Shown one piece after another: positions 1 to 13,413 of a DNA stretch of 15,155 nucleotides. Position 1 is the first letter of the stretch; every line of letters begins with the position of its first letter. Origin of the DNA: a virus; the UHGV virus genome UHGV-0151496; one strand, given 5' to 3'. The notes beneath the pieces are model-generated. The model did not search any database and was not told where the DNA came from. It saw nothing but the letters and a program-made list of their open reading frames with translations. The position numbers were made by a program, and so were the translations under genes.

Positions 1-1005
1 TTAATCCCCCGTGGACATTGCGTGGACACTCACGCCACCTTTCAGCGGATTAAGGGCCACCGCATCCTGCAGGTAATCCGGTGCAAAATGTGCATATGCC
101 ATTGTTTGCTGAATGGTTGCGTGGCCAAGAATCTTCTGAAGCGCAATAATGTTTCCTCCGTTCATCACAAAATGGCTGGCGAACGTATGCCGCAGCACAT
201 GTGCAGCCTGGCCTTTTGGCAAATCGGGCTTAACTCTTTTCAGCGCCAAGCAGAATTCCCGGTACTTCACCTCAAACAAGCCGCCTGTTTCTCTGGTTTT
301 GATCGCCTCACAAACTGCCTGCGAAATTGGCACTGTTCTCTTTCGGCCATTTTTGGTTTCAAGAAACGTTACACGGTTATGAACTATCTGTTCACCACGA
401 AGCTTACAGGCTTCACTCCAGCGCGCCCCCGTGCTTAAACACAAAAGCGCAACACGCCAGTAATCGCCCTCCAGTGTATCGAGCAATAACGCCACTTCCT
501 TCTGGGACAGGAAAGCCATTTCTCGTGGAGATACATAAAGAATAGAAATTCCCCTTACCGGATGTTCTGCATCCCAGAGGCCTATTTTCTTCAGTACGGT
601 AAACATTCCGGATAACCGATTCATGTATCTGTTAGCAGATGACGGTTTCAATCCATCAGCTATCTTTTGAGAACGCCACGCGATAATTTTTAGCTTATCA
701 AGATCCACAGCCTGCATATCAGCGCCAAGCTCATTGATTATGTTGCGCAGTTGTTTTCGGTCTTCTTCCGCCTTACGCCTGTGCTGGCCGTGATACATCC
801 ACCACAACTCAAGCAAATCATTTAGCGTTCGACGATCACGGTAGCCCTGTATATATTCCCGCTTTTCAGCGTTAGCCATGATGTAGCGTTCAGTGGCCAC
901 CGCTACCGATTTTTTGTCAAATACCTTACGCACGCGCTTTCCCTTGCGTCCGTTCGGCCTGATGTCCAGCAAATAACGACCATCTTCGAGCTTCTTAATC
1001 GACAT
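1..1005 (-). CDS. int: Tyrosine site-specific integrase, P2 Int-like
   Basis: ORF track 1..1020 begins with TTG; the first ATG is codon 6 (plus-strand 'cat' at 1003-1005), preceded on the minus strand by GGAGGG 7 nt upstream. N-terminus MSIKKLEDGRY..DIRPNGR and C-terminal HVLRHTFASHFVMNGGNIIALQKILGH..YAHF (R-H-R-Y catalytic region) resemble P2 Int as recalled. Stop codon is nt 1-3. Confidence 0.92.
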   Translation of the reverse strand: MSIKKLEDGRYLLDIRPNGRKGKRVRKVFDKKSVAVATERYIMANAEKREYIQGYRDRRTLNDLLELWWMYHGQHRRKAEEDRKQLRNIINELGADMQAVDLDKLKIIAWRSQKIADGLKPSSANRYMNRLSGMFTVLKKIGLWDAEHPVRGISILYVSPREMAFLSQKEVALLLDTLEGDYWRVALLCLSTGARWSEACKLRGEQIVHNRVTFLETKNGRKRTVPISQAVCEAIKTRETGGLFEVKYREFCLALKRVKPDLPKGQAAHVLRHTFASHFVMNGGNIIALQKILGHATIQQTMAYAHFAPDYLQDAVALNPLKGGVSVHAMSTGD

Positions 1006-1101
1006 TGCGAAGCCCTCCAATGAACCGCTCTACAATTTCTCCAGCTTCTTTCCAGCAATAATCAGACCAGACAAAAAGCAGGTCTAACCAGTTTTCTGGC
1101 C

Positions 1102-1689
1102 TCAGCGGGATAATTTTTGGATTGTTTTGGTTGAAACCCGATCGCCCTCCGAATCGCAGGAGCCATCAAGAGAGAGAGCCGGAGAAATCTGCCCAACCTC
1201 CGGCATCGTTTCATCTGTTGATAACCAGTAAGCGTATTTCTTAAATTTAGGATGTTTCGTAACCTTAAGTAAGGCCCCCTCTGTTACTTGCTTCCCTCTC
1301 GCCTCATAGTTAGTTACCGTTCCATAAGGTAGCCCAACACAATCCGCAAACTCCTGGCGGGTCATCCCTTCAGCTTCACGCATCAAGCGAAATTTTGCCC
1401 CAAGCCCAGATGCCACTTCAGACTCATCATCTACTAACGGAGTAGGCGAAACTTGCCCATTTTCAGCAGCCGAATGCCCAGTCATAAGCCAAAGCGCGTA
1501 TTTCTTGAACCTTTCAACCTGTAAAACTCGCTCAACCAACTCTGCTCTGGCAGGTTGATGCCCGGTTTCATATTTCTGAATAGTATTGAGCGGAATTCCT
1601 GTAATATCAGAGAATTGACGCCTACTTAACTCCTCCGCCTCTCTCATCATCATGAGTCTTTGCGAATAGTCTATTGACACGTTTCTCAT
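1102..1689 (-). CDS. Immunity repressor (C/CI-like) with two tandem XRE-type helix-turn-helix modules
   Basis: Same strand as int and divergent from cox, the P2 position of gene C. ORF track extends to a TTG at 1737; the first ATG is at 1687-1689 with AAGGAG upstream. Two internal repeats: REAEELSRRQFSDITGIPLNTIQKYETG...KYALWLMTG and REAEGMTRQEFADCVGLPYGTVTNYEARG...KYAYWLSTD. Confidence 0.75.
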   Translation of the reverse strand: MRNVSIDYSQRLMMMREAEELSRRQFSDITGIPLNTIQKYETGHQPARAELVERVLQVERFKKYALWLMTGHSAAENGQVSPTPLVDDESEVASGLGAKFRLMREAEGMTRQEFADCVGLPYGTVTNYEARGKQVTEGALLKVTKHPKFKKYAYWLSTDETMPEVGQISPALSLDGSCDSEGDRVSTKTIQKLSR

Positions 1690-1740
1690 ATGAGAAATAT
1701 ACTCCTTTCTAAATTGAGAAATGTTAAAACACCTCAATTG

Positions 1741-1780
1741 GCCTAAGTAAGCCTATATAAGCCATTTTGAGCCATTCGAA
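1741..1780. promoter_or_regulatory. Candidate operator/divergent promoter region: four phased 10-bp direct repeats each starting GCC
   Basis: gcctaagtaa gcctatataa gccattttga gccattcgaa read directly in the C-cox intergenic region; includes a tatataa -10-like element. Direct-repeat operators are known for P2-type C repressors. Confidence 0.5.
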
Positions 1781-1801
1781 CGAATTAGGGAGATTACCAC
1801 A

Positions 1802-2089
1802 ATGAGCGAATCTGAGCTTGGGGGGTTCATTCAGGTAGCACCATATCCACTTGAAGCGGTGCCATATCAACTATTCGCCAAGATGATCGGCCGCAAGGAA
1901 TCCACAGTCAGAACCATGATTGACGCAGCAAAGCTACCGACAATTGACTTTGTGAAACCAGGTTCAGTAAAGACGCGTGCATCAGAAAACTGGGTATATC
2001 TGCCAGCATTTAACGAAGGCATGCGCAAAGCGTTTTTTGAGCAACCGAAAGAACGCCGCGATGCATGGTTGTTGTGGTTGGGGCTTTAG
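1802..2089 (+). CDS. cox: Cox-like excisionase / early-operon repressor (P2 Cox family)
   Basis: 95 aa, divergent from the repressor, GGGAGA 8 nt upstream of the ATG. Motifs PYQLFAKMIG..TVRTMID..KLPTIDF and WVYLPAFN..RRDAWLLWLGL resemble P2 Cox as I recall it. Confidence 0.8.
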   Translation: MSESELGGFIQVAPYPLEAVPYQLFAKMIGRKESTVRTMIDAAKLPTIDFVKPGSVKTRASENWVYLPAFNEGMRKAFFEQPKERRDAWLLWLGL

Positions 2090-2095
2090 TCATAA

Positions 2096-2302
2096 ATGAC
2101 CAACAACATCACCAATATCATTTTGACCCTCGTTCTTTTTGAAGTGGGCGTGGTAGTGATTTGGCTTTTTCGCAAATTAACAGGGCATGAGGAACGCTTT
2201 ATGGCTCTCAATGTTGAATACATCACTGCTTATGCCAGAGGGCTTTTTCCGGCTGCCATTGGGGCAATGATCATGGTGTTTGTTATCTGGTTTATCGGGT
2301 AG
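2096..2302 (+). CDS. Small hydrophobic (probably membrane) protein, unknown function
   Basis: 68 aa, two hydrophobic segments (IILTLVLFEVGVVVIWLF; AAIGAMIMVFVIWFIG), immediately downstream of cox in the same operon. Confidence 0.55.
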   Translation: MTNNITNIILTLVLFEVGVVVIWLFRKLTGHEERFMALNVEYITAYARGLFPAAIGAMIMVFVIWFIG

Positions 2303-2313
2303 AGGTGCAAAAA

Positions 2314-2667
2314 ATGAATAAGCAACAGCGTAATTCTTCACAACAACGTTCCCGCAACGGAACGAAACGCCATGCTAACCGTTTCGTTACCAGCGCATCA
2401 CGCAGCAACATCCGCTACAGCCTGAGTGATACACACGCAACGCCGGATGGTCACGCTGTAAAGCAAATTGCCGAGCACACCTGGTTTATTGAGAAAGCAG
2501 GAATTGTAGTCCACAAATGCCCGCGCAATCCGTTTACCGGAAACCGCCTTTTTGCGCTGAGCAGCGGCGACAATCAGTTCGGACAGGATTTCACATTGTA
2601 CGAAGCACTACGCACGGTTGACCGATTAATTGCAGGCTGTAGTTTTCAGCACCCGTGGAGCTATTGA
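2314..2667 (+). CDS. Hypothetical early protein
   Basis: ORF track start 2305 is GTG; the ATG at 2314 has AGAGGTG 6 nt upstream. Basic, Ser/Arg/Gln-rich N-terminus. No family recognised. Confidence 0.55.
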   Translation: MNKQQRNSSQQRSRNGTKRHANRFVTSASRSNIRYSLSDTHATPDGHAVKQIAEHTWFIEKAGIVVHKCPRNPFTGNRLFALSSGDNQFGQDFTLYEALRTVDRLIAGCSFQHPWSY

Positions 2668-2670
2668 TCA

Positions 2671-2928
2671 ATGGCAGCCTCAACAACAGGCGAAAAAGCA
2701 ACACCGGAGGCGGTCTACCGATGTCTTGCTCATCGAGTGGTCACGCACTGCGCTTTCAAAATGCTTAACGGAGAAAGAAGTCCAGCCAAAGCAAAACGCC
2801 AACTGATTAACGGACTGGAGTCATTAAGAGAGGTTGCCGCAGCCGCAAATGATTATCCACCGTTCTTCATGATTAACGAAATGATTGAGCAGATTAAATC
2901 CGGTAAATCAATCGAGCATCTTCTTTAA
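2671..2928 (+). CDS. Hypothetical early protein
   Basis: 85-aa ORF, ATG 3 nt after the preceding stop, co-directional in the early operon. Confidence 0.5.
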   Translation: MAASTTGEKATPEAVYRCLAHRVVTHCAFKMLNGERSPAKAKRQLINGLESLREVAAAANDYPPFFMINEMIEQIKSGKSIEHLL

Positions 2929-2949
2929 TTATTTTCGGGATAACGCCAG

Positions 2950-3192
2950 ATGGACGAAGAATATAAAAAACTCATCAACAAAGCTCTTGAGCGTTTTTAC
3001 TTTCGCTTAAGCGCATCGGGCGCTCATGCTGAACGCGCAGCCCGCGAGTCATTAAACAGAGCCATCAGGAGTCTGTTCGACACAGCTTTTTACATTGATG
3101 ACCCGGACGCACTCGACGAACTTTCAAAACTCGTCTGCGCCGCAGAAAACGGGGAGCATATCGAACCGTATAAGGTGGGGAATATCGCATGA
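2950..3192 (+). CDS. Hypothetical early protein
   Basis: 80-aa acidic ORF; its TGA overlaps the next start (ATGA at 3189-3192). Confidence 0.5.
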   Translation: MDEEYKKLINKALERFYFRLSASGAHAERAARESLNRAIRSLFDTAFYIDDPDALDELSKLVCAAENGEHIEPYKVGNIA

Positions 3193-3302
3193 GTATATTT
3201 ATATCCTGGCTTGCCCTGGTTATTTCGGTGTTCTGCGCCATTGGCATTGTGCGAATTATCGATTCCTTGAAAAAGATTGAACGCTTTTTCACTGGCGAAT
3301 AA
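3189..3302 (+). CDS. Candidate 37-aa hydrophobic micro-protein (MSIFISWLALVISVFCAIGIVRIIDSLKKIERFFTGE)
   Basis: Absent from the ORF track (below its length cut-off). ATG overlaps the upstream stop as ATGA; one predicted transmembrane helix followed by a short charged tail. My own translation of the sequence. Confidence 0.4.
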   Translation: MSIFISWLALVISVFCAIGIVRIIDSLKKIERFFTGE

Positions 3303-3394
3303 CAGCACGAATAAAACACCACATTAATTCCGAAAACCTGAAAACAATCCACATTCGCGGAGGGTTTCTCATATTTAAACAGCGGAGAGCGTAA

Positions 3395-3769
3395 ATGAGC
3401 AAAAGAACAGAAGACGTTATTTTTAAGCTGGAAAAAATCGCAAAGGCAGAAAGCGAACTAGCAATAGAAGGTGCAAAAGAAGGTCTCATGGGCGTTGCAG
3501 CCCATTCAGCATTGCTGGCAGCAGTCGCAACTGAAGCTGTTGCAATCATTAAGCAACTGGACAGAGATATTAAATTACTGAAAACAGAAAACGCCAGCGA
3601 GGCTGCATTAACGCTCAACGACTGCGTTAATCATCTTGTTCATACCGCCCATTCCACATACCCGGATGCAGTCCTGAAAATCGTCAAGAAAAACACCTGC
3701 ATCGTTGCTCCGGTTGCTCCTGGCCTTCTCGTCGAATTGCCCAAAGAGCAGGTTTTCATCACAAAGTAA
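3395..3769 (+). CDS. Hypothetical early protein
   Basis: 124-aa ORF with GGAGAG 5 nt upstream of the ATG; Ala/Lys/Glu-rich, probably helical. No family recognised. Confidence 0.6.
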   Translation: MSKRTEDVIFKLEKIAKAESELAIEGAKEGLMGVAAHSALLAAVATEAVAIIKQLDRDIKLLKTENASEAALTLNDCVNHLVHTAHSTYPDAVLKIVKKNTCIVAPVAPGLLVELPKEQVFITK

Positions 3770-3783
3770 TCACGGGGTTCGTC

Positions 3784-4065
3784 ATGAGAAAGCAACCGAC
3801 TGTCACCGTATGTGCCGGAGAGAACGGGAGCGCCAGACTGCACATTGACTGCATTCCGCCATCATCGGTTTACAACAGAGCTATCACCGAACTTAAAGCC
3901 TTTATCTGTGGCAAACGTAATTTCTCCGTTATGCGAGCCAGTCATCGCATGAGTATTCGCGTCGGTGAACGCTATCGCCTCCTGAGTGCACGCTCAGATG
4001 GTCTGTCGTGGCAACTCATCACCCATGAAACCTATAACACGAAATGCAGGCAGAAGTGCGCATGA
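3784..4065 (+). CDS. Hypothetical early protein
   Basis: 93-aa ORF; its stop overlaps the next start (ATGA at 4062-4065). Confidence 0.5.
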   Translation: MRKQPTVTVCAGENGSARLHIDCIPPSSVYNRAITELKAFICGKRNFSVMRASHRMSIRVGERYRLLSARSDGLSWQLITHETYNTKCRQKCA

Positions 4066-4400
4066 CACATCCACTGGACAAACTGAAATATTTCAAAGCG
4101 TTCATGGCTCACACAGCCAGAGCGTTTGCAGGGTTTTACGCGTATCCATGCAGAACAGAATGGGATGGCCTTCTGCAACGAATTTTAAAGGAAGGGAGCC
4201 TGGTGGCCATTGACGAGTTCACCGCGAAATTTCAGTTCAACGATAACGAATATGAAATCTGGATTGCTAACCGATGGTACGCATTCGGCCATCTGCGCCG
4301 TCTGAACGGCCTCTTGTCTGACGAAGCATTCCGCCCCTGTTTCAGAACCATGTATCGCCTGCATCAGATGGTTCAGGCATTTCTGGCTGCGGAGGCGTAA
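4062..4400 (+). CDS. Hypothetical early protein
   Basis: ORF track start 4044 is earlier in frame; the ATG at 4062 (MTHPLDKL...) overlaps the upstream stop as ATGA. Aromatic-rich, 112 aa. Confidence 0.55.
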   Translation: MTHPLDKLKYFKAFMAHTARAFAGFYAYPCRTEWDGLLQRILKEGSLVAIDEFTAKFQFNDNEYEIWIANRWYAFGHLRRLNGLLSDEAFRPCFRTMYRLHQMVQAFLAAEA

Positions 4401-4612
4401 TGGCTTTTGAGGTGTACAAGGTTGTCCGTTTCACAGTTGATGGTCGCAACTATGACGTGGATGAGCGCCTGATAGACATGGACAGAACCGCCCCATCACG
4501 CACTGACCCAAACGTCCACTATATCTGGTTTAAGGACGGGGAAACCCATTTTCGCGCCACTGACGTGACGCACGTAAATCTCATCCGGCAAACACGGGAG
4601 AAACAGCAATGA
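4400..4612 (+). CDS. Hypothetical early protein
   Basis: 70-aa ORF; start overlaps the upstream stop (TAATG) and its stop overlaps the next start (ATGA). Confidence 0.5.
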   Translation: MAFEVYKVVRFTVDGRNYDVDERLIDMDRTAPSRTDPNVHYIWFKDGETHFRATDVTHVNLIRQTREKQQ

Positions 4613-4839
4613 CAGCAATCAGAAGCTATCCACGTAAACCAGGCAAGGCACTCGCCACACTGAAAAGTCTTCTTCACTCCGAAGTATGTGATTTTTGCGC
4701 GGGGCTCGGTTCACCAGGTGAGCCAGTCTCACCTGCAGCGATTCAGGCAGAACTCCTGATGCGCCTCGATGCGGTATTTGATTTTTACATTCATATGCCA
4801 CCAGAGACCAGCACAGCATCCGTTGCCGTAAAACGCTGA
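4609..4839 (+). CDS. Hypothetical early protein
   Basis: 76-aa ORF, translationally coupled to the upstream ORF; last ORF before a ~325-nt non-coding gap. Confidence 0.5.
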   Translation: MTAIRSYPRKPGKALATLKSLLHSEVCDFCAGLGSPGEPVSPAAIQAELLMRLDAVFDFYIHMPPETSTASVAVKR

Positions 4840-4962
4840 AACAGGTACACCATGCACACACAAAAAAACCGCTTGCCACAGCGCAATCAGTCAGGTTACA
4901 TTTCCGCTGCATCTCATAAAACGGATGCCGGGTTTCGCAGCCTGCTGATCAACAAAGCGCAC

Positions 4963-4983
4963 AACCGCGTCAGCGGTTTTTTT
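4963..4983 (+). terminator. Intrinsic-terminator-like hairpin with T tract
   Basis: aaccgc-gtca-gcggtt followed by ttttt: 6-bp stem, 4-nt loop, 7 consecutive T (4977-4983) on the + strand. Confidence 0.5.
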
Positions 4984-5039
4984 GTGCGTACCGCATTGCC
5001 GCACATTTTTTCGCATCAGAATTATGGTGGGGCGTACGG

Positions 5040-5069
5040 GGCCGACTTCGGTCGGGCCGGGTTTTCTTT
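5040..5069 (+). terminator. Second terminator-like hairpin (GC-rich stem, UUCG loop) with U-rich tail
   Basis: ggccgac-ttcg-gtcgggcc followed by gggttttcttt. About 7-bp stem with one bulge, then T-rich tract. Confidence 0.45.
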
Positions 5070-5165
5070 GTTGACCGGTACTGCGAACCTCGTACGTCTC
5101 GCCACCCACAGTTTCGCAGCTCTGGATGGTGAGTATTCAAAACTTACCAACAAAGAGGCCACACC

Positions 5166-5396
5166 ATGGCAAACCGCAAACAGCACCGCGCTATCGCGGA
5201 GCGTCGTCACATCCAGACTGAAATCAACCGCAGACTTTTCCGCGCATTCCGCGTCGCTAAAATCATGCACATCAACATGCTGCATGAGCGTAGCTGCGAA
5301 CTTTCAAACCTCTACTCATCCGCTGTTTTCAGCTATCTGGCGGATGATCTGCGCGAGCTTCAGCAGCTCATCCAGCAGCAAAACCAACTCCGTTAA
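5166..5396 (+). CDS. Hypothetical small basic protein
   Basis: 76-aa ORF with AAGAGG 7 nt upstream of the ATG; Arg-rich N-terminus and Gln-rich C-terminus (LQQLIQQQNQLR). First gene after the non-coding gap. Confidence 0.6.
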   Translation: MANRKQHRAIAERRHIQTEINRRLFRAFRVAKIMHINMLHERSCELSNLYSSAVFSYLADDLRELQQLIQQQNQLR

Positions 5397-5468
5397 TTCC
5401 TGTTCCGGGCCTTTCCCGCACCCTGCGGCGGGAGGCCTTCGCACATCTGTAGTAAAGAGAATTGCAGC

Positions 5469-5858
5469 ATGATTGACCGTCACGACTTCGTAAAATGGGT
5501 GCGCACACAGGACACCCGTCTGGCCCCAAAACTTCAGGCAATGTTTGATTTTTATCTCCGTGCCCGTGCCAGCCGGGCACGCACCACAAAACCGGAGAAC
5601 GCAGACACCCTTTATTTCACCGTGGACGACTGTTACCGCGTGGCCTTTACACCACAAGGTCTGGGCCTGTACACCCTGACACCACACGGCGACTCCCTGT
5701 TGGCGTATTACGACTCCCCGGCCTCCGTATTTGCGGCAATGCTGGCGCATCGTACCGCTGGCGGGTGTGCATCGCTGAGTGAATACACCGCTGAATTTAA
5801 CCGCCTTTCCGTCATCTTTTCGCAGGAGTGGCAGAGCGTGACGGGATACCAGCCATGA
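5469..5858 (+). CDS. Hypothetical protein immediately upstream of the replication gene
   Basis: 129-aa ORF; its TGA overlaps the gpA ATG (ATGA at 5855-5858). Confidence 0.55.
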   Translation: MIDRHDFVKWVRTQDTRLAPKLQAMFDFYLRARASRARTTKPENADTLYFTVDDCYRVAFTPQGLGLYTLTPHGDSLLAYYDSPASVFAAMLAHRTAGGCASLSEYTAEFNRLSVIFSQEWQSVTGYQP

Positions 5859-8695
5859 GTGAGTTTGCATGGAGCTGGAATGAACCGCAGCCAGCTATTG
5901 ATCCGGACGACTTCGCGAACTTCAGCCGGTTGCCAAAAACCGGACTGCAACGCGCCATTCGTTACTACCTTGAGGCAGACAAAAAGGCCCAGGAAGAACA
6001 GGAAGCGAAGGGAGAAGCCTTTTTCGCACAATCCGCCATGGGTAAAAAACTCATGGCATCCCTTGAGGAAGCCGGGCAACACAAAAAACTGATAAAAAAC
6101 ATCATCAGTAAGCGCCAGGAAATAAAGCAAGACCCGGTGGCCCGTGCATTTGTCACACTAAAGGCGCTTCCCGTTTATCTGCGAGAACCCCTGAGCCGCC
6201 ACCTCTCGTTCCTGCGCAAGAAGCAGGAAGCCGATCGTCAGAAAGGCAAAAAGAGCTGGCAGGCCGAACGCTACGCGCGCGGAAACCTGCGCAAAATATT
6301 CGAACGTCTGAAGCGCACCGACAGCCGCTGGCTGACACAGGGGTATCGCTCCCTTGCCGGACGCGAACGCCTGGACGATTTGCTTTACCTGCCGCAGCTC
6401 AACAAACACCAGATACAGACGCTGGCCACCATGACGGCGGCGATGTTCAGCAGCACCTTCGAAAAACTCTGCGATGGCTTTGGCGCGACCGATGGTGAGC
6501 TGACCATGGATGTAACGCTGAAGGCGTATCAGATGCTGGCCCGCATGGCGTTACACCTGCACACCATGCCGCCGCATTATGACGCACTGACAACAGACAA
6601 AGACCGGAAGAACGAACCGGAAACGGAGCTGCTGCCAGGCGCAATCCTTCGCCTGACCTGTGCGGAATGGTGGAAACGCAAACTGTGGCTTTTACGTTGC
6701 GAGTGGAGAGAAGAACAACTCCGCGCCGCCTGTCTGGTTTCCAGAAAAACATCGCCCTATCTGAGCCAGGACGCGTTAAGCGAGTTTCGCGCACAACGCG
6801 AGAAAACACGCGATTTCCTGAAAAGTTTCATGCTGGAAAACAAATACGGGTTCACGTTTTATCTCGAGACAGTGTATTACGCGGGAGTAAGTAACCCGGT
6901 TCACCGTAAGGCAGAAATGATGGCCACCATGAAGGGACTGGAACTTCTGGCCGAAGCCCGTGGCGACAGAGCGGTGTTTCTGACTGTCACCTGCCCGTCA
7001 AAATACCACGCAACAACGGAGAACGGTCATCCGAACCCCAAATGGAACGGGGCCACCATGCGCGACTCCAGCGATTACCTGGTTAACACGTTTTTTGCGG
7101 CGGTCCGCAAAAAACTGAACCGCGACGGTCTGCGCTGGTATGGCATCCGCACGGTGGAGCCTCATCATGACGGCACGGTGCACTGGCACATGATGGTTTT
7201 TGCGCATCCTGACGAGATTGAAACCATCGTGTCCCACACCCGCGATATTGCCATTCAGGAAGATCGTCACGAGCTGGGTGATGATATTACCCCACGCTTT
7301 AAGGCGGAGTACGTCGACGGCTCAAAAGGCACACCGACCAGCTACATCGCCACCTACATCGGGAAAAACCTGGACAGCCGTGCCGTGGATGGCATCGACC
7401 CGAAAACGGGCAAGCCACGCGTTGACCACGAAACCGGAAAATCAATGGCCGAGAGCGTGGAACGCGCCATCGGCTGGGCGCGCCTTCACCGTGTCCGCCA
7501 GTTCCAGTTCTTTGGTATCCCCTCCCGTCAGGTGTGGCGTGAACTCCGCCGCCTTGCCAGCCAGATGGCACGCAACCCGGAAGGCCCGCAACGGCTGAAG
7601 GATGACGCAATGGATGCGGTACTCGCTGCCGCTGATGCCGGATGTTTTGCCACCTACATAGAGAAACAGGGCGGCGTACTTGTTCCACGCAAAGACTACC
7701 TGATTCGCACCGCCTACGACCTCGCAGAAGAGCTGAACGATTACGGCGAACAGAGCGCACAGATTTATGGGATCTGGTCACCACTCATCGGGGAATCCTC
7801 CCGTGTGTGCACGCACCCGGATAACTGGAAGCTGGTAAGACGTAAACCGGAAGCGGAAGACAACACCCGCGAAAATGGTTTTGACCTTCAGGGCGGCCTT
7901 GCCGCCCCTTGGACTCGTGGCAATAACTGTCCCCGTGTACAGGAAACGGACAACAACGGGACAGAACAGCCGGAAGAACGGCCAGCACCGTGGCCGCAGC
8001 TTCCTGACGGCGTTGAAGTGAATGAATGGATCCGCTCACTGAAACGGCACGAACGCCGGGCGCTGATGCGTTCGCTGCGTGACAAACAGGCAAAAAACAG
8101 CAGCGATGAAATGCAGAACTGGACACAGAGCCGCAAACAGCCGCGGCCTTTACCTGATAACCACGAGTTACTCGCTAAAGAATGGCGGGAGTCTGCTGAA
8201 TCTCTCGGCCTGCATATCGGTGAACAGCAGATGCAGCACCTGTTACGGGGCGGCAGTCTGTACGTTGACGGCAGCATCATTTCACCGCAGGGATTTGAAA
8301 TTGTACGCAAACCGGATACCCGCCCGGACGGCCTAATCACGCAACTCTGGCAACGCCTGAGCCGTAATCACGGCATAAGCAGCACGGAGATCCGCCATAA
8401 CCCGGTCGCCAGCTATCTGAAACAGCTCGAGGCATCAGACCCTGAAGCCGCCGCACGCCTGGCATCCACACTTCAGCAAGACCAGAACACCATGAAAACA
8501 CCCGTTACCGTGCTTTCTGACATGCTGCGCGCCATCCGCGACGCAGAGCACGCACAGAGAATCAGTGAAACCACTGAACGCGCCCGCCGCAAAGCAGACC
8601 TACTGCGGGGTAGCCTGACCAGTGGAAACAAAAAACAGACAAAAACGGGATTCACAAATCCCGTAAATGAGCAAAAAACGCGCCGCGATATATGA
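5855..8695 (+). CDS. A: Rolling-circle replication initiation endonuclease, P2 gpA family
   Basis: ORF track start 5828 is GTG; the ATG at 5855 overlaps the upstream stop. Contains an HUH-type motif (GTVHWHMMVFAHPDE) and a paired-tyrosine motif (SYIATYIGKNL) typical of P2 A-type Rep proteins. Position matches gene A in the P2 map. Confidence 0.88.
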   Translation: MSEFAWSWNEPQPAIDPDDFANFSRLPKTGLQRAIRYYLEADKKAQEEQEAKGEAFFAQSAMGKKLMASLEEAGQHKKLIKNIISKRQEIKQDPVARAFVTLKALPVYLREPLSRHLSFLRKKQEADRQKGKKSWQAERYARGNLRKIFERLKRTDSRWLTQGYRSLAGRERLDDLLYLPQLNKHQIQTLATMTAAMFSSTFEKLCDGFGATDGELTMDVTLKAYQMLARMALHLHTMPPHYDALTTDKDRKNEPETELLPGAILRLTCAEWWKRKLWLLRCEWREEQLRAACLVSRKTSPYLSQDALSEFRAQREKTRDFLKSFMLENKYGFTFYLETVYYAGVSNPVHRKAEMMATMKGLELLAEARGDRAVFLTVTCPSKYHATTENGHPNPKWNGATMRDSSDYLVNTFFAAVRKKLNRDGLRWYGIRTVEPHHDGTVHWHMMVFAHPDEIETIVSHTRDIAIQEDRHELGDDITPRFKAEYVDGSKGTPTSYIATYIGKNLDSRAVDGIDPKTGKPRVDHETGKSMAESVERAIGWARLHRVRQFQFFGIPSRQVWRELRRLASQMARNPEGPQRLKDDAMDAVLAAADAGCFATYIEKQGGVLVPRKDYLIRTAYDLAEELNDYGEQSAQIYGIWSPLIGESSRVCTHPDNWKLVRRKPEAEDNTRENGFDLQGGLAAPWTRGNNCPRVQETDNNGTEQPEERPAPWPQLPDGVEVNEWIRSLKRHERRALMRSLRDKQAKNSSDEMQNWTQSRKQPRPLPDNHELLAKEWRESAESLGLHIGEQQMQHLLRGGSLYVDGSIISPQGFEIVRKPDTRPDGLITQLWQRLSRNHGISSTEIRHNPVASYLKQLEASDPEAAARLASTLQQDQNTMKTPVTVLSDMLRAIRDAEHAQRISETTERARRKADLLRGSLTSGNKKQTKTGFTNPVNEQKTRRDI
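8646..8663. repeat. 18-bp perfect-arm palindrome cgggattcacaaatcccg (copy 1), inside the 3' end of the gpA ORF
   Basis: Read directly: 7-bp arms CGGGATT/AATCCCG around a 4-nt centre, followed by taaa. Near-identical copy 73 bp downstream. Confidence 0.6.
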
Positions 8696-8718
8696 AGCGC
8701 GCACAAAACAGGCAAAAG

Positions 8719-8736
8719 CGGGATTTCAGAATCCCG
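8719..8736. repeat. 18-bp palindrome cgggatttcagaatcccg (copy 2), upstream of parM; candidate ParR operator/parC-like site
   Basis: Same arms as copy 1, also followed by taaa; lies 36 nt upstream of the parM ATG. Confidence 0.6.
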
Positions 8737-8771
8737 TAAACGATTAATTAATCAACATAAGGAAAAGCGAC

Positions 8772-9731
8772 ATGAAAATTTGTATCGACGACGGCTCCAC
8801 CAACATCAAGCTGGCATGGACTGAGAACGGCGAACGCCGCAACGCCATCAGCCCGAACAGCTTCAAGTCGGAATGGTCTGCGCCGTTCGGCGGCTCGCAG
8901 CCCGCGAACTACATGCTTGATGGCGTGCGCTATGGTTTTGATCCGGTCAGCGATCGCTTTGTCCGGACGACCGACACGCAATACCAGTACAGCGATGTGA
9001 ATGTCATTGCCATTCATCATGCGCTGGTCAAATCAGGTATTACGCCACAGGAAGTGGATGTGGTTGTCACCCTGCCACTGAGCGAGTATTTCGACACAAA
9101 CGCACAGCCGGATATGACCAACATCAACCGCAAAAAAGCGAACGTCATGCGCCCGGTGGAGTACCAGAACGGTGAGGCATTCACTATCCGTAACGTGCGG
9201 GTTATGCCTGAATCCATTCCGGCAGGCTTTAAGGCACTGGCTGACATGAGTCCGTTTGAATCCCTGCTGATTGTGGATTTGGGCGGTACCACGCTGGATG
9301 TGGCAAAGGTTCAGGGGCAACTGGCAGGTATCAGCCAGGTATTTTGCGATCCACACGTAGGCGTTTCACTGATGACCGATGCCGTGCTGTCGGTGATGGC
9401 CACCAACGGTATGCGTACCAGCCACCACATCGCCAGTACCATTATCGAACATCGCCACGATGAAGCCTGGCTGCGCCAGCACATCCACAATGACGCGCAT
9501 TACGCCAGCCTGATGGCGGTTATTCGTGAAAAGGAAGAAACACTGAAACAACGCGTGATCCGCGCACTGGCGGGCTTTTCGGGATACGGTCGGGTGATGA
9601 TTGTCGGTGGAGGGGCGGAGATTGTGGCTCCGGCGGTACATGACGCTTACGGCCTCAACGCAAACATTCACACAACACCGGAGCCACAGTTTGCCCTGGT
9701 TAATGGACTCCATGACATGAACAGGGAGTGA
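8772..9731 (+). CDS. parM: Actin-like plasmid segregation ATPase ParM/StbA
   Basis: N-terminus MKICIDDGSTNIKLAW, SPNSFKSEW, YSDVNVIAIHHAL, VMPESIPAGF, LIVDLGGTTLDV, VMIVGGGAEI and C-terminal ALVNGL closely resemble plasmid R1/R100 ParM (StbA) as I recall it. AAGGAA precedes the ATG. Confidence 0.9.
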   Translation: MKICIDDGSTNIKLAWTENGERRNAISPNSFKSEWSAPFGGSQPANYMLDGVRYGFDPVSDRFVRTTDTQYQYSDVNVIAIHHALVKSGITPQEVDVVVTLPLSEYFDTNAQPDMTNINRKKANVMRPVEYQNGEAFTIRNVRVMPESIPAGFKALADMSPFESLLIVDLGGTTLDVAKVQGQLAGISQVFCDPHVGVSLMTDAVLSVMATNGMRTSHHIASTIIEHRHDEAWLRQHIHNDAHYASLMAVIREKEETLKQRVIRALAGFSGYGRVMIVGGGAEIVAPAVHDAYGLNANIHTTPEPQFALVNGLHDMNRE

Positions 9732-9735
9732 ACCA

Positions 9736-10047
9736 ATGACAACATCAACCAGGCGGATAAGTTTCTATCTGAAGCCAGCCGCAGTCAAGAACGAAGGTGA
9801 AGCATGCACATGGCTGGACAGCCTTACACCAGAAGCCCGCAAAAGCGGCCAACGCGTGGCTTTTCTGGCCGGGCTGGCGCTTCTGAAGACGAATCCGGCA
9901 GAGGCTTACCGGCTGGCTGCATGGGCTGACGATGAGGCGTTATCCGTGACACAAACCAGGACAGAACGCCCCGTGTCACAGCCAGTACCAACCGCACAGA
10001 TAACCAGTCAGATGGCCGGAAATATCCGGGCGCTATTTCCTGAGTAA
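9736..10047 (+). CDS. parR: ParR/StbB-like centromere-binding adaptor
   Basis: 103 aa directly downstream of parM (4-nt gap, GGGAG upstream). N-terminal RRISFYLKP...LDSLTPEARKSGQRVAFLAGLAL resembles the ribbon-helix-helix region of R1 ParR. Confidence 0.7.
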   Translation: MTTSTRRISFYLKPAAVKNEGEACTWLDSLTPEARKSGQRVAFLAGLALLKTNPAEAYRLAAWADDEALSVTQTRTERPVSQPVPTAQITSQMAGNIRALFPE

Positions 10048-10053
10048 GCAGAG

Positions 10054-10074
10054 CCAGGGCGGAAACCGCCCTGG
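10054..10074. terminator. Perfect 9-bp stem / 3-nt loop hairpin after parR (no T tract)
   Basis: ccagggcgg-aaa-ccgccctgg, 7 nt after the parR stop. Marks the boundary between the GC-typical core and the AT-rich island. Confidence 0.4.
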
Positions 10075-10099
10075 ATGTAATCAGTAGAGAGTGTGAACC

Positions 10100-10228
10100 C
10101 ACACCACATCACGCTCCATGAAATTTGCATAATTTAACTATGATTTTTGCAACTCTCCATTCATAATGTTAGTAATAATTAACCAATCTAAACCCATAAG
10201 AGCCACCATTGTTAAATTCAGGTGACGT
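10100..10228 (+). promoter_or_regulatory. AT-rich upstream region of the cargo operon; putative promoter
   Basis: TTGCAA at 10147-10152 and TAAT-rich -10 candidates (cataat 10162-10167, taataa 10173-10178); AGGTGA before the ATG at 10229. Spacing is not canonical, so the exact promoter is unresolved. Confidence 0.25.
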
Positions 10229-11374
10229 ATGAACATTCAACAGCGTATAGCAGAACGCTTGGTTCAGGCCAGAAACGACGCGGGAATGAGTGCAAGCGCC
10301 GTCGCAGATGCGATCGGTGTTGTTCGTCAAACCTACAGTAAGTTTGAGCAGGCGCTAGGCGTCCCAAGCGTTACCCAACTCATCATGCTCTGCAAGATTT
10401 TCGATAAGCCTATCGGGTATTTTTATGAGCAAGATGATGGCGAGTTCCGTTTTGCAATGCGAGCAGATAGTCCGGATTTGTTGGATGCTAAACTTCGCAA
10501 TGAGTTGATTGAAAAGTTAAAAAATATCAATGCAATTGAGGAAGCTGCTGATGCTAATTTGCCAGAAGATCTTCCTAACTCAATGCCTATTTTTACCGCC
10601 AAAGCAGAAGATTTGCGAAGAGTCGAAGATAAGGCTATGGAAGAACGTTTCCGTCTTGGTATAGGAAACGCTACTTGCGTTGGTGACATTGTAGCCATTT
10701 TGGAAGCATCGGATATTCGAGTAATCCCGTTCAATCGCGAAGAAACCGATAAAGGGATGGTATTCGGATTTTCTGCGTTTTCGAACAAATACGGTACCGC
10801 GATTTATGTAAATGTTCACGACAGCATTTCAATAGAACGTCAAATCTTCAGTATTTGCCATGAATATGCTCATCTTATCTTCCACCGTGATGAGTATGAT
10901 GGCCCTGCTAAAAGCTATAAAACTAATGGCAAAGCAATTTCACCGGAAGAAAAAGTTGCTAATCACTTTGCTGCTTGTTTTTTGGTACCAGAAAGTGCAT
11001 TGCGAAAACAATTCGTCATGCAAGGTGGTGGATGGGCGTATGAGGAAACCGTCCTTAGACTAAAAAGCATTTTCAGAGTATCAGCCACTTGCATCATCGA
11101 TCGTCTTAGTAAATGTAATTTAATTAATCAACAAAACACTAGATACCTATGGGCAACCGCCAATCGTAAAGGTTGGAAGAGACACGAGCCAAATCCCATT
11201 AGGGAAGCACTAAATTATAAAGGTCGCCTAACCGTCTTATCGCGTAAAGCATGGGAAGCCGGTTCCGCGTCGGAAACCTTCATATCTGAACTTTTAGAAT
11301 TAGACAGAAAAGCTCTCAGCAATCTTCTGGATGAATGGTACGACGAACAGGAGGCCGGAGAGGATGCCGTTTGA
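10229..11374 (+). CDS. Fused XRE-family HTH + ImmA/IrrE (COG2856/DUF955-type) zinc metallopeptidase
   Basis: N-terminal HTH (SASAVADAIGVVRQTYSKFEQALGVPSVTQL) and central HExxH motif (SICHEYAHLIFH) in the context typical of ImmA/IrrE peptidases. 381 aa, AT-rich codon usage unlike neighbouring phage genes. Confidence 0.8.
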   Translation: MNIQQRIAERLVQARNDAGMSASAVADAIGVVRQTYSKFEQALGVPSVTQLIMLCKIFDKPIGYFYEQDDGEFRFAMRADSPDLLDAKLRNELIEKLKNINAIEEAADANLPEDLPNSMPIFTAKAEDLRRVEDKAMEERFRLGIGNATCVGDIVAILEASDIRVIPFNREETDKGMVFGFSAFSNKYGTAIYVNVHDSISIERQIFSICHEYAHLIFHRDEYDGPAKSYKTNGKAISPEEKVANHFAACFLVPESALRKQFVMQGGGWAYEETVLRLKSIFRVSATCIIDRLSKCNLINQQNTRYLWATANRKGWKRHEPNPIREALNYKGRLTVLSRKAWEAGSASETFISELLELDRKALSNLLDEWYDEQEAGEDAV

Positions 11375-11882
11375 ATGCCCCAGATGTGTTATCGATACGA
11401 ATGTACTGTCTGATTTTTACGAAGGTAAATGCTTAGATCTTATCTGGCAAATTTACCCGGGTGGTGTGTGGATTGACCCCTATGTCTGCGAGGAACTAAA
11501 AGCTAAATACAATCTTGATGTTCAGGAACAGCTTACACGCCTGCAACTTCCATACAATTTCACCAATGATTACGAACCTGAACATTTTATTGAAATGGCT
11601 GAGATAAAAAATCGCAGGAGAGCATTGAAGTATGCGGACATAAGCTGCGTTGTTAACGCGAGAATACATGATGCAACATGTCTTTCGGCGGATAATGCGG
11701 TTTATAAAACGTGTGCGGAACGCGGTGTAAAAGCCGCCCGCCACGGAGGGCTACTCCAAGAGGCTGTGCGCAGGAGACTTATCCACAAACATCAAGCCTT
11801 AATGCATTTCCAATTTTTCCTAGATCGTGGGTTAACGATGAAATCTTCTGTTCGAGAACAGATTCTTGCCAGTTTCGAATGA
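11364..11882 (+). CDS. PIN-domain-like nuclease (VapC-like fold), candidate toxin/effector
   Basis: ATG at 11364 with AGGAGG 9 nt upstream (ORF track's 11331 start lacks an SD). VIDTNVLSDF near the N-terminus (PIN strand-1 Asp), acidic residue in VCEELK, then DISCVVNARIHDATCLSADNAVY resembling the PIN D..IAA.A / T.D motifs. Start lies 10 nt upstream of the peptidase stop. Confidence 0.6.
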   Translation: MPFECPRCVIDTNVLSDFYEGKCLDLIWQIYPGGVWIDPYVCEELKAKYNLDVQEQLTRLQLPYNFTNDYEPEHFIEMAEIKNRRRALKYADISCVVNARIHDATCLSADNAVYKTCAERGVKAARHGGLLQEAVRRRLIHKHQALMHFQFFLDRGLTMKSSVREQILASFE

Positions 11883-11915
11883 ATCCAAATCTCTCTTGCC
11901 ATATTGGGTTATATT

Positions 11916-11941
11916 GAGCCGCAATAGCGGCTCTTTTTTTT
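11916..11941 (+). terminator. Rho-independent terminator of the cargo operon
   Basis: gagccgc-aata-gcggctc followed by 8 T (11934-11941), 34 nt after the PIN stop. Confidence 0.8.
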
Positions 11942-11956
11942 GTTTATTTATAACAA

Positions 11957-11992
11957 GTGCGCAATGCACAATAGTGCGCAAATTTGCACAAT
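11957..11992. repeat. Tandem direct repeat GTGCGCAA(T)n TGCACAAT x2
   Basis: gtgcgcaatgcacaata / gtgcgcaaatttgcacaat read directly. TGCACAA recurs at 12056-12062 beside the palindrome aaaaacgcgttttt (12064-12077). Confidence 0.5.
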
Positions 11993-12313
11993 TTTTTTGA
12001 GCGACTTTTTGCCCTTCTGGCCCGCGTGGCGGCTGGATCCGTCAAGGATCCGTGCATGCACAAAAAAACGCGTTTTTGTTGCGCGCAGGTGCCGGGGGAA
12101 CAGCCCGCAATTTGGGGTCTGAAAGCATCCTCAGAAATCGCCAGAAATGCTGCTGATTGTGCCCCTGACGCGATGTTTTATTGGTTGTGTGGTGAAGTAT
12201 GGGCTGATGCATCACATGCCTGTGATGCACTTTGATGCGACGTGTGCTGACAGGTTATTCAACCTGGTAGATCCCTGAGATGCCTGGTGCGTGACACACC
12301 GGAGCTGGTGAGT

Positions 12314-12337
12314 CGGGGCATAAATTTTTATGCCCCG
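12314..12337. repeat. Inverted repeat cggggcataaa-tt-tttatgccccg just downstream of the portal gene stop
   Basis: 11-bp arms read directly; could be the minus-strand transcription terminator of the P-Q operon and/or part of the packaging (cos) region. Confidence 0.5.
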
Positions 12338-12363
12338 GAGAAGCAGCAGACAAGCGAAGCGCG

Positions 12364-13413
12364 TCAGGATGTGGGCGGGGTATCCAGCAGTGCGTAAGGG
12401 TTAAAGCGGATCACCTCCTCGCCCAGCCAGTCATTAACGTGCTTCATCGCCTCCATCACCGGCATCAGTTCGTTGATCGCAAACACTCTGGCCGCCTTCT
12501 CCACATCACCAAAAGAACCCTGCCCGCTGGGCATTGCGCCCATCAGTTGTGGTGGTACACGGTGAGCGGCCAGCACATCATCACGGGAGGCCGCCTTGAC
12601 GTTCATGAACTCATCCCGGGCGGTGATCTGCTGGAATGGCAGGATTTGCACACCGTCCTTCCCGCCGTTCGGTGCCTGGAGTAGCAGGTTCTTGAATGCC
12701 CCACCGCCTCTTGCGCCCTGCAACGCTCTTTCGAGAGCCTGCATACTTTCGCGATCAACCTGTGCTGCCCCCACGTAAATGATGCAGCCTGCATGTGAAC
12801 CGTTGTCATAGTAGAGTTTGCGGAAGCGATCTGCCGAGTGCGACAGACTGGCAGACAACAGGCCACCGAGATATTCCGGCATTCCGTACATCTCCTGGTT
12901 GATGTCGGGGTTCAGCACATGGCAGACGCGCCCCTGACGGAACTCGTGATCCTGCTCCCCCGTCTGCACAAACCAGTACACATCCGGTTCAACACCACGA
13001 CGGACGTATTTTGCCAGGGCATGGCGCAGTTCCAGTTTTCCGCCCAGCCTGTTGGTGCGCAGTTCAAGAAACGCATTCCCGAAGACAAACCAGTCCAGCG
13101 CAAAGGCGGAGAACGCCTGCCGGGACAACAGCCGGTGCGGAATGAAGCAGCCCAGTATGGCATTCCGCTTGAAGTACAGCGCCGACTGGTGCCACGAGGT
13201 CTGCCGGGATGCCCGCGCCAGTCCGTACCAGTCAACGGGCGTTTCGTAGTATCTGCCGTTACTCAGACAGTATGCGTTATCCAGCAGGTCGAGTGCGTGC
13301 GCATCGTAAGGGCCGTCGAACGAGAAGGCGCTTAACGACGGCTGGCGGCGCAGTGCCTCTGCCAGCGCCACGCCGTCATCGCGGCGCGAATATTTTCGTT
13401 TTTGTTTTTTCAT
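12364..13413 (-). CDS. Q: Phage portal (capsid portal vertex) protein, P2 gpQ-like
   Basis: 349 aa, immediately downstream of and overlapping (ATGA) the terminase ATPase gene on the minus strand; size and position match P2 gene Q. Family assignment by position and general resemblance, not by a search. Confidence 0.8.
   Translation of the reverse strand: MKKQKRKYSRRDDGVALAEALRRQPSLSAFSFDGPYDAHALDLLDNAYCLSNGRYYETPVDWYGLARASRQTSWHQSALYFKRNAILGCFIPHRLLSRQAFSAFALDWFVFGNAFLELRTNRLGGKLELRHALAKYVRRGVEPDVYWFVQTGEQDHEFRQGRVCHVLNPDINQEMYGMPEYLGGLLSASLSHSADRFRKLYYDNGSHAGCIIYVGAAQVDRESMQALERALQGARGGGAFKNLLLQAPNGGKDGVQILPFQQITARDEFMNVKAASRDDVLAAHRVPPQLMGAMPSGQGSFGDVEKAARVFAINELMPVMEAMKHVNDWLGEEVIRFNPYALLDTPPTS

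Follow-up and report, generated by a model that had tools for sequence, protein, structure and literature searches.

The 15,155-nucleotide (nt) stretch of viral DNA analysed here (UHGV virus genome UHGV-0151496; called the window below, at its full length) represents the left portion of a prophage of the P2 family, and at positions 8772-10047 it carries two genes, parM and parR, that by homology form a genuine type II (ParM/ParR) DNA-segregation cassette. In P88-like temperate phages of the P2 family (Xuanwuvirus and distant relatives), the pair belongs to the replication module, where it is fixed and inherited vertically. By analogy with an actin-like system of a Corynebacterium glutamicum prophage, we lean towards a role in which the pair, once the phage has infected a cell or been induced, positions or partitions its extrachromosomal circles, and we infer that it is not a plasmid-prophage maintenance system. 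An earlier sequence-only reading had recognised a plasmid-type ParM/ParR pair inside an integrative P2-like prophage with int and cox, lying between gene A and cargo genes. All of this is borne out, and the two open reading frames (ORFs) are exactly where that reading had placed them. Two further suggestions, that the pair might be part of the variable cargo or point to an episomal phase, agree poorly with the results below; its other suggestion, a repurposed actin-like filament system, corresponds to the role towards which we lean.

An intact type II partition cassette

ParM is covered end to end by Pfam StbA_N (4.5e-82) and the ParM C-terminal domain (8.2e-65), and matches PHROG 691 'partition protein' (1.7e-85). 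The sequence of the R1 ParM crystal structure (PDB 1mwk) aligns with it over residues 2-314 (E-value 7.7e-92), and the two proteins are 47.2% identical. The sequence-only reading had proposed an alignment to R1 and a check of the ATP-binding residues, whose loss would have spoken against it. The nucleotide-binding motifs DDGSTN (position 6), PESIPAG (146), DLGGTTLD (169), and GGGAE (279) are the same in both proteins, so that ParM has the phosphate-1, phosphate-2, and adenosine motifs and the catalytic Glu of the actin-fold ATPase of a type II ParMRC system.

The gene for ParR starts 4 nt past the parM stop codon. Its product matches Pfam Plasmid_stab_B (3.4e-24) and PHROG 2515 'partition protein' (2.8e-57), and can be aligned with R1 ParR, C-terminal tail included. 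The N-terminal strand reads TRRISFYLKP in the window and RRTIAFKLNP in R1; the tail reads NIRALFPE in the window vs KKNAMKLIN in R1, and a single Asn is invariant in 10 of 10 aligned sequences. In 36 homologues compared, conservation covers residues 1-67 and the eight C-terminal residues; between them, residues 68-95 make up a hypervariable linker rich in Pro, Gln, and Ala. As predicted from this pattern, the layout (DNA-binding domain, flexible linker, filament-binding tail) is the one expected for a ParR adaptor. An AlphaFold model of the ParR monomer, built from the 36-sequence alignment, was of low confidence (predicted local distance difference test score 54.6), too low to confirm the N-terminal ribbon-helix-helix fold of ParR adaptors, with helices at residues 20-61 and a C-terminal helix at 89-97. 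A sequence search of PDB with ParR returned chance matches only.

In comparison with eight relatives, the ratio of nonsynonymous to synonymous substitution rates (dN/dS) is 0.14-0.18 for parM and 0.11-0.26 for parR; as estimated from these alignments, both genes are under purifying selection, with dN/dS about 0.15. ORF lengths are the same, and all copies intact, in nine compared parM/parR loci. The parR gene of Escherichia coli prophages nevertheless occurs as many alleles, which are 52-92% identical in their products, as against 92-99% for the neighbouring ParM proteins. This variation lies mostly in the linker (residues 68-95) and partly in residues 28-60. The dS between parR alleles reaches 1.3-1.6, far above the 0.24 of parM, and implies recombination inside the cassette.

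Distribution of the pair

The cassette was found in 1307 of 5426 complete E. coli genomes (24%), including O157:H7, sequence type 131 (ST131), and enterotoxigenic E. coli (ETEC) strains, in 1453 chromosomal places vs 2 on plasmids. It is also approximately 93% identical at the nucleotide level in phage P88 (Xuanwuvirus P88), Citrobacter phage phiSM, and a dozen other phage records. In P88 the genes are annotated as gp17, 'plasmid segregation protein ParM', and gp18, 'partition protein'; the cassette is therefore already present in public databases and is not new as an object. The phiSM paper counts the gene among possible fitness factors but does not test it (PMC6456863), and the P88 paper is silent on the pair (PMC5285337). 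In the literature searched, we found no functional study of parM/parR in P2-like or P88-type phages.

Several observations place the pair with the core genome rather than with the cargo. In P88-like phages, homology spans parR and ends at about position 10077 of the window, just past a strong hairpin that follows the parR stop codon (Table 1); beyond this point, the phages differ from one another. The hairpin (RNA fold -23 kcal/mol, z -4.9) closes the conserved module, and it is probable that the transcription unit ends there too. Among the E. coli genomes, a P88-type gene A is present in 1356 and the pair in 1307, with a contiguous A-parM-parR segment in at least 1223. In P88, phiSM, and E. 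coli prophages, the pair fills the same slot (gene order A, parM, parR, hotspot, portal). Moreover, P2-like prophages of Hafnia, Plesiomonas, Serratia, and Enterobacter have a parM gene (54-63% amino acid identity of the product), with a Plasmid_stab_B gene after it, between A and the portal gene. We therefore rejected the view of the pair as variable cargo, given the boundary after the parR hairpin and the same position kept in distant phages.

The pair is far from general in the P2 family. Among 382 phage records with a gene A homologue, ParM was encoded in 14, all of them with a P88-type A (at least 72% identity), and it was absent from P2, 186-like phages, PSP3, and Klebsiella P2-like phages. 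The universal presence in canonical P2 relatives that the sequence-only reading had named as a reason to abandon its view is thus not seen. In a neighbor-joining tree (no bootstrap), the ParM proteins of the distant prophages and of the window form one clade, apart from the R1-like, IncI1, and D6 ParM proteins. A recent capture from a plasmid was ruled out, as plasmid ParM proteins are at most 52% identical to that of the window, none in PLSDB falls within 60%-90% identity, and the prophage clade is separate. Between the window and the distant phages, identity is 54-63% for ParM, 29-46% for the portal protein, 35-45% for the terminase, and 30-55% for A; judged by these comparisons, ParM is better conserved than the portal, terminase, or A proteins across these phages.

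Some prophages that have lost other functions keep the pair. In E. coli O157:H7 86-24, A, parM, and parR are intact in a defective P88-like prophage (positions 3417387-3426477) whose tape-measure gene is frameshifted, whose portal-terminase region is missing, and in which an IS3 remnant is present; the same match pattern is seen in many O157:H7 genomes.

Two records should be read with care. A ParM search of genome contigs returned three loci, one of them in a Vagococcus assembly: contig NZ_JBQPOM010000071.1 (226 kb) of Vagococcus sp. WN89Y carries an enterobacterial A-parM-parR locus at 92% identity, which in a Gram-positive assembly is most likely contamination. In Salmonella record NZ_CP110658.1, labelled IncHI2, positions 99429-140772 hold a sopE-carrying P88-like prophage together with ffh, rpsP, pheA, and tyrA, next to IS26; this is either a plasmid-captured chromosome segment or a misassembly.

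Candidate ParR sites and transcription of the pair

Two 42-nt direct repeats spaced 73 bp apart, each with a CGGGATT-N4-AATCCCG palindrome, lie at the end of gene A and just upstream of parM (Table 1). Based on their sequence and position, they are the best candidate ParR sites, with repeat 1 as the putative distal half of a minimal parC and repeat 2 as a putative site or operator. The palindrome is restricted to these two copies in the window and in one complete relative phage genome; no further copies were found elsewhere in either. It is kept in nine relatives, with a few uncompensated substitutions. Plesiomonas has an analogous repeat pair 72 bp apart with a CGGG-N10-CCCG core, and Serratia and Enterobacter have inverted-repeat arms of 14-20 nt in place of the paired repeats. 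In Hafnia and Plesiomonas, a recognisably similar proximal element is followed by ATTAATCAA and a Shine-Dalgarno sequence. R1-like, IncI1, and D6 loci, in comparison, have at least three iteron copies and larger intergenic regions. A parC homologous to that of R1 was looked for and rejected, since R1-like iterons (of the AAACCCAAAAACAACCC type) are absent and a loose A-rich resemblance alone was not counted.

ParMRC loci have their own promoter inside parC, autoregulated by ParR; none is predicted from the sequence here. A sigma-70 consensus scan of positions 8300-10400 gave no promoter-like site, and the best position weight matrix (PWM) promoter score upstream of parM was 4.1 in the window and 1.4 in P88, with a background median of 5.8. 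The R1-like, IncI1, and D6 loci score 11.2-13.5 (R1-like 13.5, D6 11.2). Gene A lies directly upstream of parM on the same strand with a gap of 76 nt, and no terminator was found on the plus strand between the two genes. The best rightward promoter-like site in positions 1000-12400 is the one upstream of cox (11 of 12 consensus matches), which, from the gene organisation of P2 and 186, we take to be the candidate early promoter driving the genes from cox through A to parM and parR. Because the pair has no detectable promoter of its own, shares the strand of A, and is not separated from it by a terminator, it is probably transcribed from this early promoter.

A proposed role in handling phage circles

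In the reading that we favour, ParR dimers would bind both palindromic repeats in the region from the end of gene A to the parM leader, the conserved C-terminal tail of ParR would capture ATP-ParM filaments, and these filaments would move or separate phage DNA circles. The early promoter would drive transcription of the pair together with gene A. As this promoter is repressor-controlled, the two proteins would be produced only upon infection or induction, at a time when the phage DNA exists as an extrachromosomal circle, and the pair would be silent in the lysogen. Rolling-circle replication of the P2 type leads to monomeric double-stranded circles, which are the packaging substrate. Positioning or partitioning of these circles might aid their replication or packaging, or help both daughter cells to inherit them before integration.

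The closest functional precedent for such a role is the AlpC/AlpA system of the integrated prophage CGP3 of Corynebacterium glutamicum, in which the actin-like AlpC is co-transcribed with a DNA-binding adaptor, AlpA, that binds upstream of the operon (PMC4446434, PMC5539076). AlpC/AlpA is induced early and acts on excised phage circles, whose DNA it tethers to actin-like filaments, and it is required for efficient replication (PMC4446434). The more specific proposal, that P88-like phages use a promoterless, minimal ParMRC in their early replication operon to move or partition monomeric circles or not-yet-integrated genomes, is advanced tentatively; we regard it as plausible and stop short of expecting it.

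Some points weigh against a circle-positioning role. The case on promoters was made with sigma-70 consensus scans, which a weak or activator-dependent promoter would escape, and the promoter scores of the Hafnia, Serratia, and Enterobacter relatives are 8.2-9.6, near the 90th percentile of the background. There are two sites here vs ten iterons in R1 parC; both palindromes resemble minus-strand intrinsic terminators, the P88 and O157 copies have uncompensated substitutions in the arms, and the palindromes may not be a centromere at all. ParMRC systems act on two or more sister copies, and what a lytic phage would gain from separating circles is not evident. Finally, the intact A, parM, and parR genes of the defective O157:H7 prophages could hint at a role in the lysogen.

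Among the other explanations, we consider it unlikely that the pair serves episomal or carrier-state maintenance, that is, persistence over many generations as a low-copy circular plasmid, for instance before integration or where attB is not available, stabilised by ParMRC, which would make these phages facultative phage-plasmids. Characterised members of the family do stabilise plasmids, the plasmid-prophage D6 has a related StbA/StbB (46% identical), and one PLSDB entry, NZ_CP148288.1, filed as a circular plasmid under an E. coli isolate from a cat, is a complete P88-like genome of 34,461 bp with int to ogr joined. In the same study series, a human isolate has an identical 4.3-kb A-parM-parR segment in its chromosome, and spontaneous induction in culture would explain the single circular record equally well. 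With this exception, the PLSDB matches are chromosome fragments or integrated copies, and the 1453 chromosomal vs 2 plasmid places given above do not describe a prophage kept as an extrachromosomal replicon. Nor is a plasmid-type replication initiator annotated in the 34.5-kb relative, where a P2-type rolling-circle endonuclease (gene A) is the only one, beside integrase and Cox; the pair also differs from D6 and plasmid loci in having no promoter of its own. The episomal phase of the sequence-only reading thus finds little support as a stable lifestyle.

The link of the pair to the 3' end of gene A suggests a different partner. On R1, ParM and ParR bind the relaxase TraI and raise its activity in vivo and in vitro (PMC4949242), and by analogy the phage proteins might contact the HUH endonuclease A and promote either nicking at ori or the building of a replication complex, with DNA transport as a secondary function. 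The linkage holds across very divergent phages whose structural modules vary, and repeat 1 lies inside gene A. The argument, however, is one of pure analogy: the adjoining A proteins share no more than 30-55% identity and have lengths of 785 to 955 amino acids (aa), Hafnia and Enterobacter have other genes between A and parM, and most P2-like phages replicate without the pair, so that we find this role quite improbable. Still more doubtful, in our view, is a 'moron' expressed in the lysogen that would block partition of incoming plasmids, phage-plasmids, or superinfecting relatives (incompatibility or exclusion), or would otherwise benefit the host. The defective O157:H7 prophages and the possible fitness factor of the phiSM paper would fit it, as would the adjoining defence hotspot, here with a RosmerTA-like pair, and the ParR alleles, which diverge more than ParM as selection on specificity might cause. 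Against this, no promoter was detected, the pair is on the conserved side of the boundary hairpin with a fixed position while the hotspot content changes, and the ParR variation is centred on the disordered linker, with the DNA-reading N-terminus and the palindromes conserved across alleles. No PADLOC defence model matches ParM or ParR, and a defence protein was rejected on the same ground. That the pair is a functionless relic of an old plasmid recombination event is very hard to reconcile with dN/dS of approximately 0.15, identical ORF lengths in nine copies, and the same position across genera with conservation above that of core phage genes, even if no phenotype is known and parM is disrupted in one phage record (503458).

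Should a role in organising or partitioning circles prove true, the AlpAC precedent would extend to enterobacterial P2-family phages, and an actin-filament system for DNA positioning would have been shown for the first time in an integrative phage of Gram-negative bacteria. Such a role would bear on the establishment of lysogeny and the handling of rolling-circle monomers, could underlie a transient plasmid-like carrier state, and would offer a naturally minimal ParMRC (two sites, a 103-aa ParR) for mechanistic work. Should the pair have no measurable effect, it would be an annotated, conserved gene pair of unknown benefit. In either case, we found no published test of any role for a plasmid-partition machine carried by nearly a quarter of complete E. 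coli genomes, and the question is why an integrating lineage keeps it more conserved than its own structural genes.

Comparison with known systems

The ParMRC system of plasmids R1 and NR1 (parA/stb) is similar in its ParM (47% identical over the full length), homologous ParR, gene order parM-parR, and upstream repeats. It is found on a plasmid, whereas the pair of the window is in an integrated phage. The R1-like locus has a promoter-like site (score 13.5), which the window lacks, and an array of 11-bp-type iterons instead of two palindrome-bearing 42-nt repeats. In addition, the upstream gene of the window is only 76 nt away from parM, and the ParR of the window, at 103 aa vs 116-117 aa in R1, is without part of the central helical region.

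D6, a P1-like phage-plasmid, also has a phage-borne StbA that is 46% identical to the ParM of the window, with StbB downstream, and the D6 record itself remarks on the similarity of StbA to 'phage P88 StbA'. D6, however, persists as a plasmid, and its system has a promoter-like site of its own (11.2) and at least three iterons in a 270-nt intergenic region; its StbA groups with plasmid ParM proteins in the neighbor-joining tree, outside the prophage clade. The likeness to CGP3 AlpC/AlpA/alpS is in architecture only (an actin-like gene and an adaptor, upstream repeats, an integrated prophage). Host phylum and phage type differ, and AlpAC has experimental support, whereas the P88-type pair is known from sequence. 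The nearest counterparts are gp17/gp18 of P88 and the phiSM genes, the same cassette, placed as here downstream of the replication endonuclease gene; both phages are viable, inducible, and integrative (PMC5285337, PMC6456863). They differ from the window by allelic changes in the cassette, by structural genes that diverge more, and by other hotspot cargo.

Prophage context

The gene order of the window (int, repressor, cox, small early genes, A, parM, parR, hotspot, portal, terminase; Table 1) and its identity to P88 place it in the P88-like lineage. Identity to P88 is 93% for ParM, 94% for ParR, 87% for A, 78% for the portal protein, and 74% for the terminase; because the last two values are so low, the window is a mosaic relative and not P88 itself. 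Prophages with an identical ParM, found on contigs up to 284 kb long, are integrated next to the pdxB gene of E. coli, and the DNA flanking the pdxB-adjacent prophage is 100% identical to E. coli.

Table 1 Features of the window in order of position.
Feature	Position	Strand	Remarks
Integrase	1-1005	-	
Double helix-turn-helix repressor			Between integrase and cox in gene order
Best rightward promoter-like site	1674-1703	+	TTGACA-18-TATACT; upstream of cox
Cox	1802-2089		
ORF among the small early genes	3784-4065		93 aa; domain similar to the toxin ParE (1.5e-10)
Gene A, rolling-circle replication endonuclease	5828-8695	+	955 aa; Pfam Phage_GPA 1.2e-128
Repeat 1 of 42-nt direct repeat	8629-8670	+	Inside last codons of gene A
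Palindrome in repeat 1	8645-8664		ACGGGATT-N4-AATCCCGT
Repeat 2	8702-8743	+	81% identical to repeat 1
Palindrome in repeat 2	8719-8736		CGGGATT-N4-AATCCCG; 36 nt before parM ATG
Conserved parM leader	8744-8771	+	TTAATTAATCAACATAAGGAAAAGCGAC; Shine-Dalgarno AAGGA at 8759-8763; from alignment of relatives
parM, actin-like segregation ATPase	8772-9731	+	319 aa, intact; Pfam and R1 ParM match
parR (stbB), short adaptor	9736-10047	+	103 aa; Plasmid_stab_B, PHROG 2515, R1 ParR alignment
Strong hairpin	10054-10074	+	CCAGGGCGG-AAA-CCGCCCTGG; 7 nt past parR stop; no T tract
RosmerTA-like cargo pair	10229-11933		P2-type hotspot, right of parM/parR
Canonical terminator	11916-11933		End of RosmerTA-like cargo
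Portal and terminase		-	Right of cargo

The Phage_GPA match of the gene A product covers only residues 194-518, and its approximately 430 C-terminal residues are without a Pfam match. At the end of the same gene, a 26-aa ORF (MSKKRAAIYEARTKQAKAGFQNPVND, positions 8667-8747) lies in the +1 frame relative to A, just downstream of a run of six A residues (8673-8678), and echoes a C-terminal motif of the A protein, KKQTKTGFTNPVNE. This ORF may have come about as a side effect of the 42-nt DNA duplication, or it may extend A through a frameshift. We favour a repeat at the DNA level, since Plesiomonas is without the peptide motif. To the right of the pair, the RosmerTA-like cargo consists of a protein with helix-turn-helix and M78-peptidase domains (PADLOC RmrA, 2.8e-35; NCBIfam spr1629-family repressor/antitoxin) and an overlapping PIN-domain protein.

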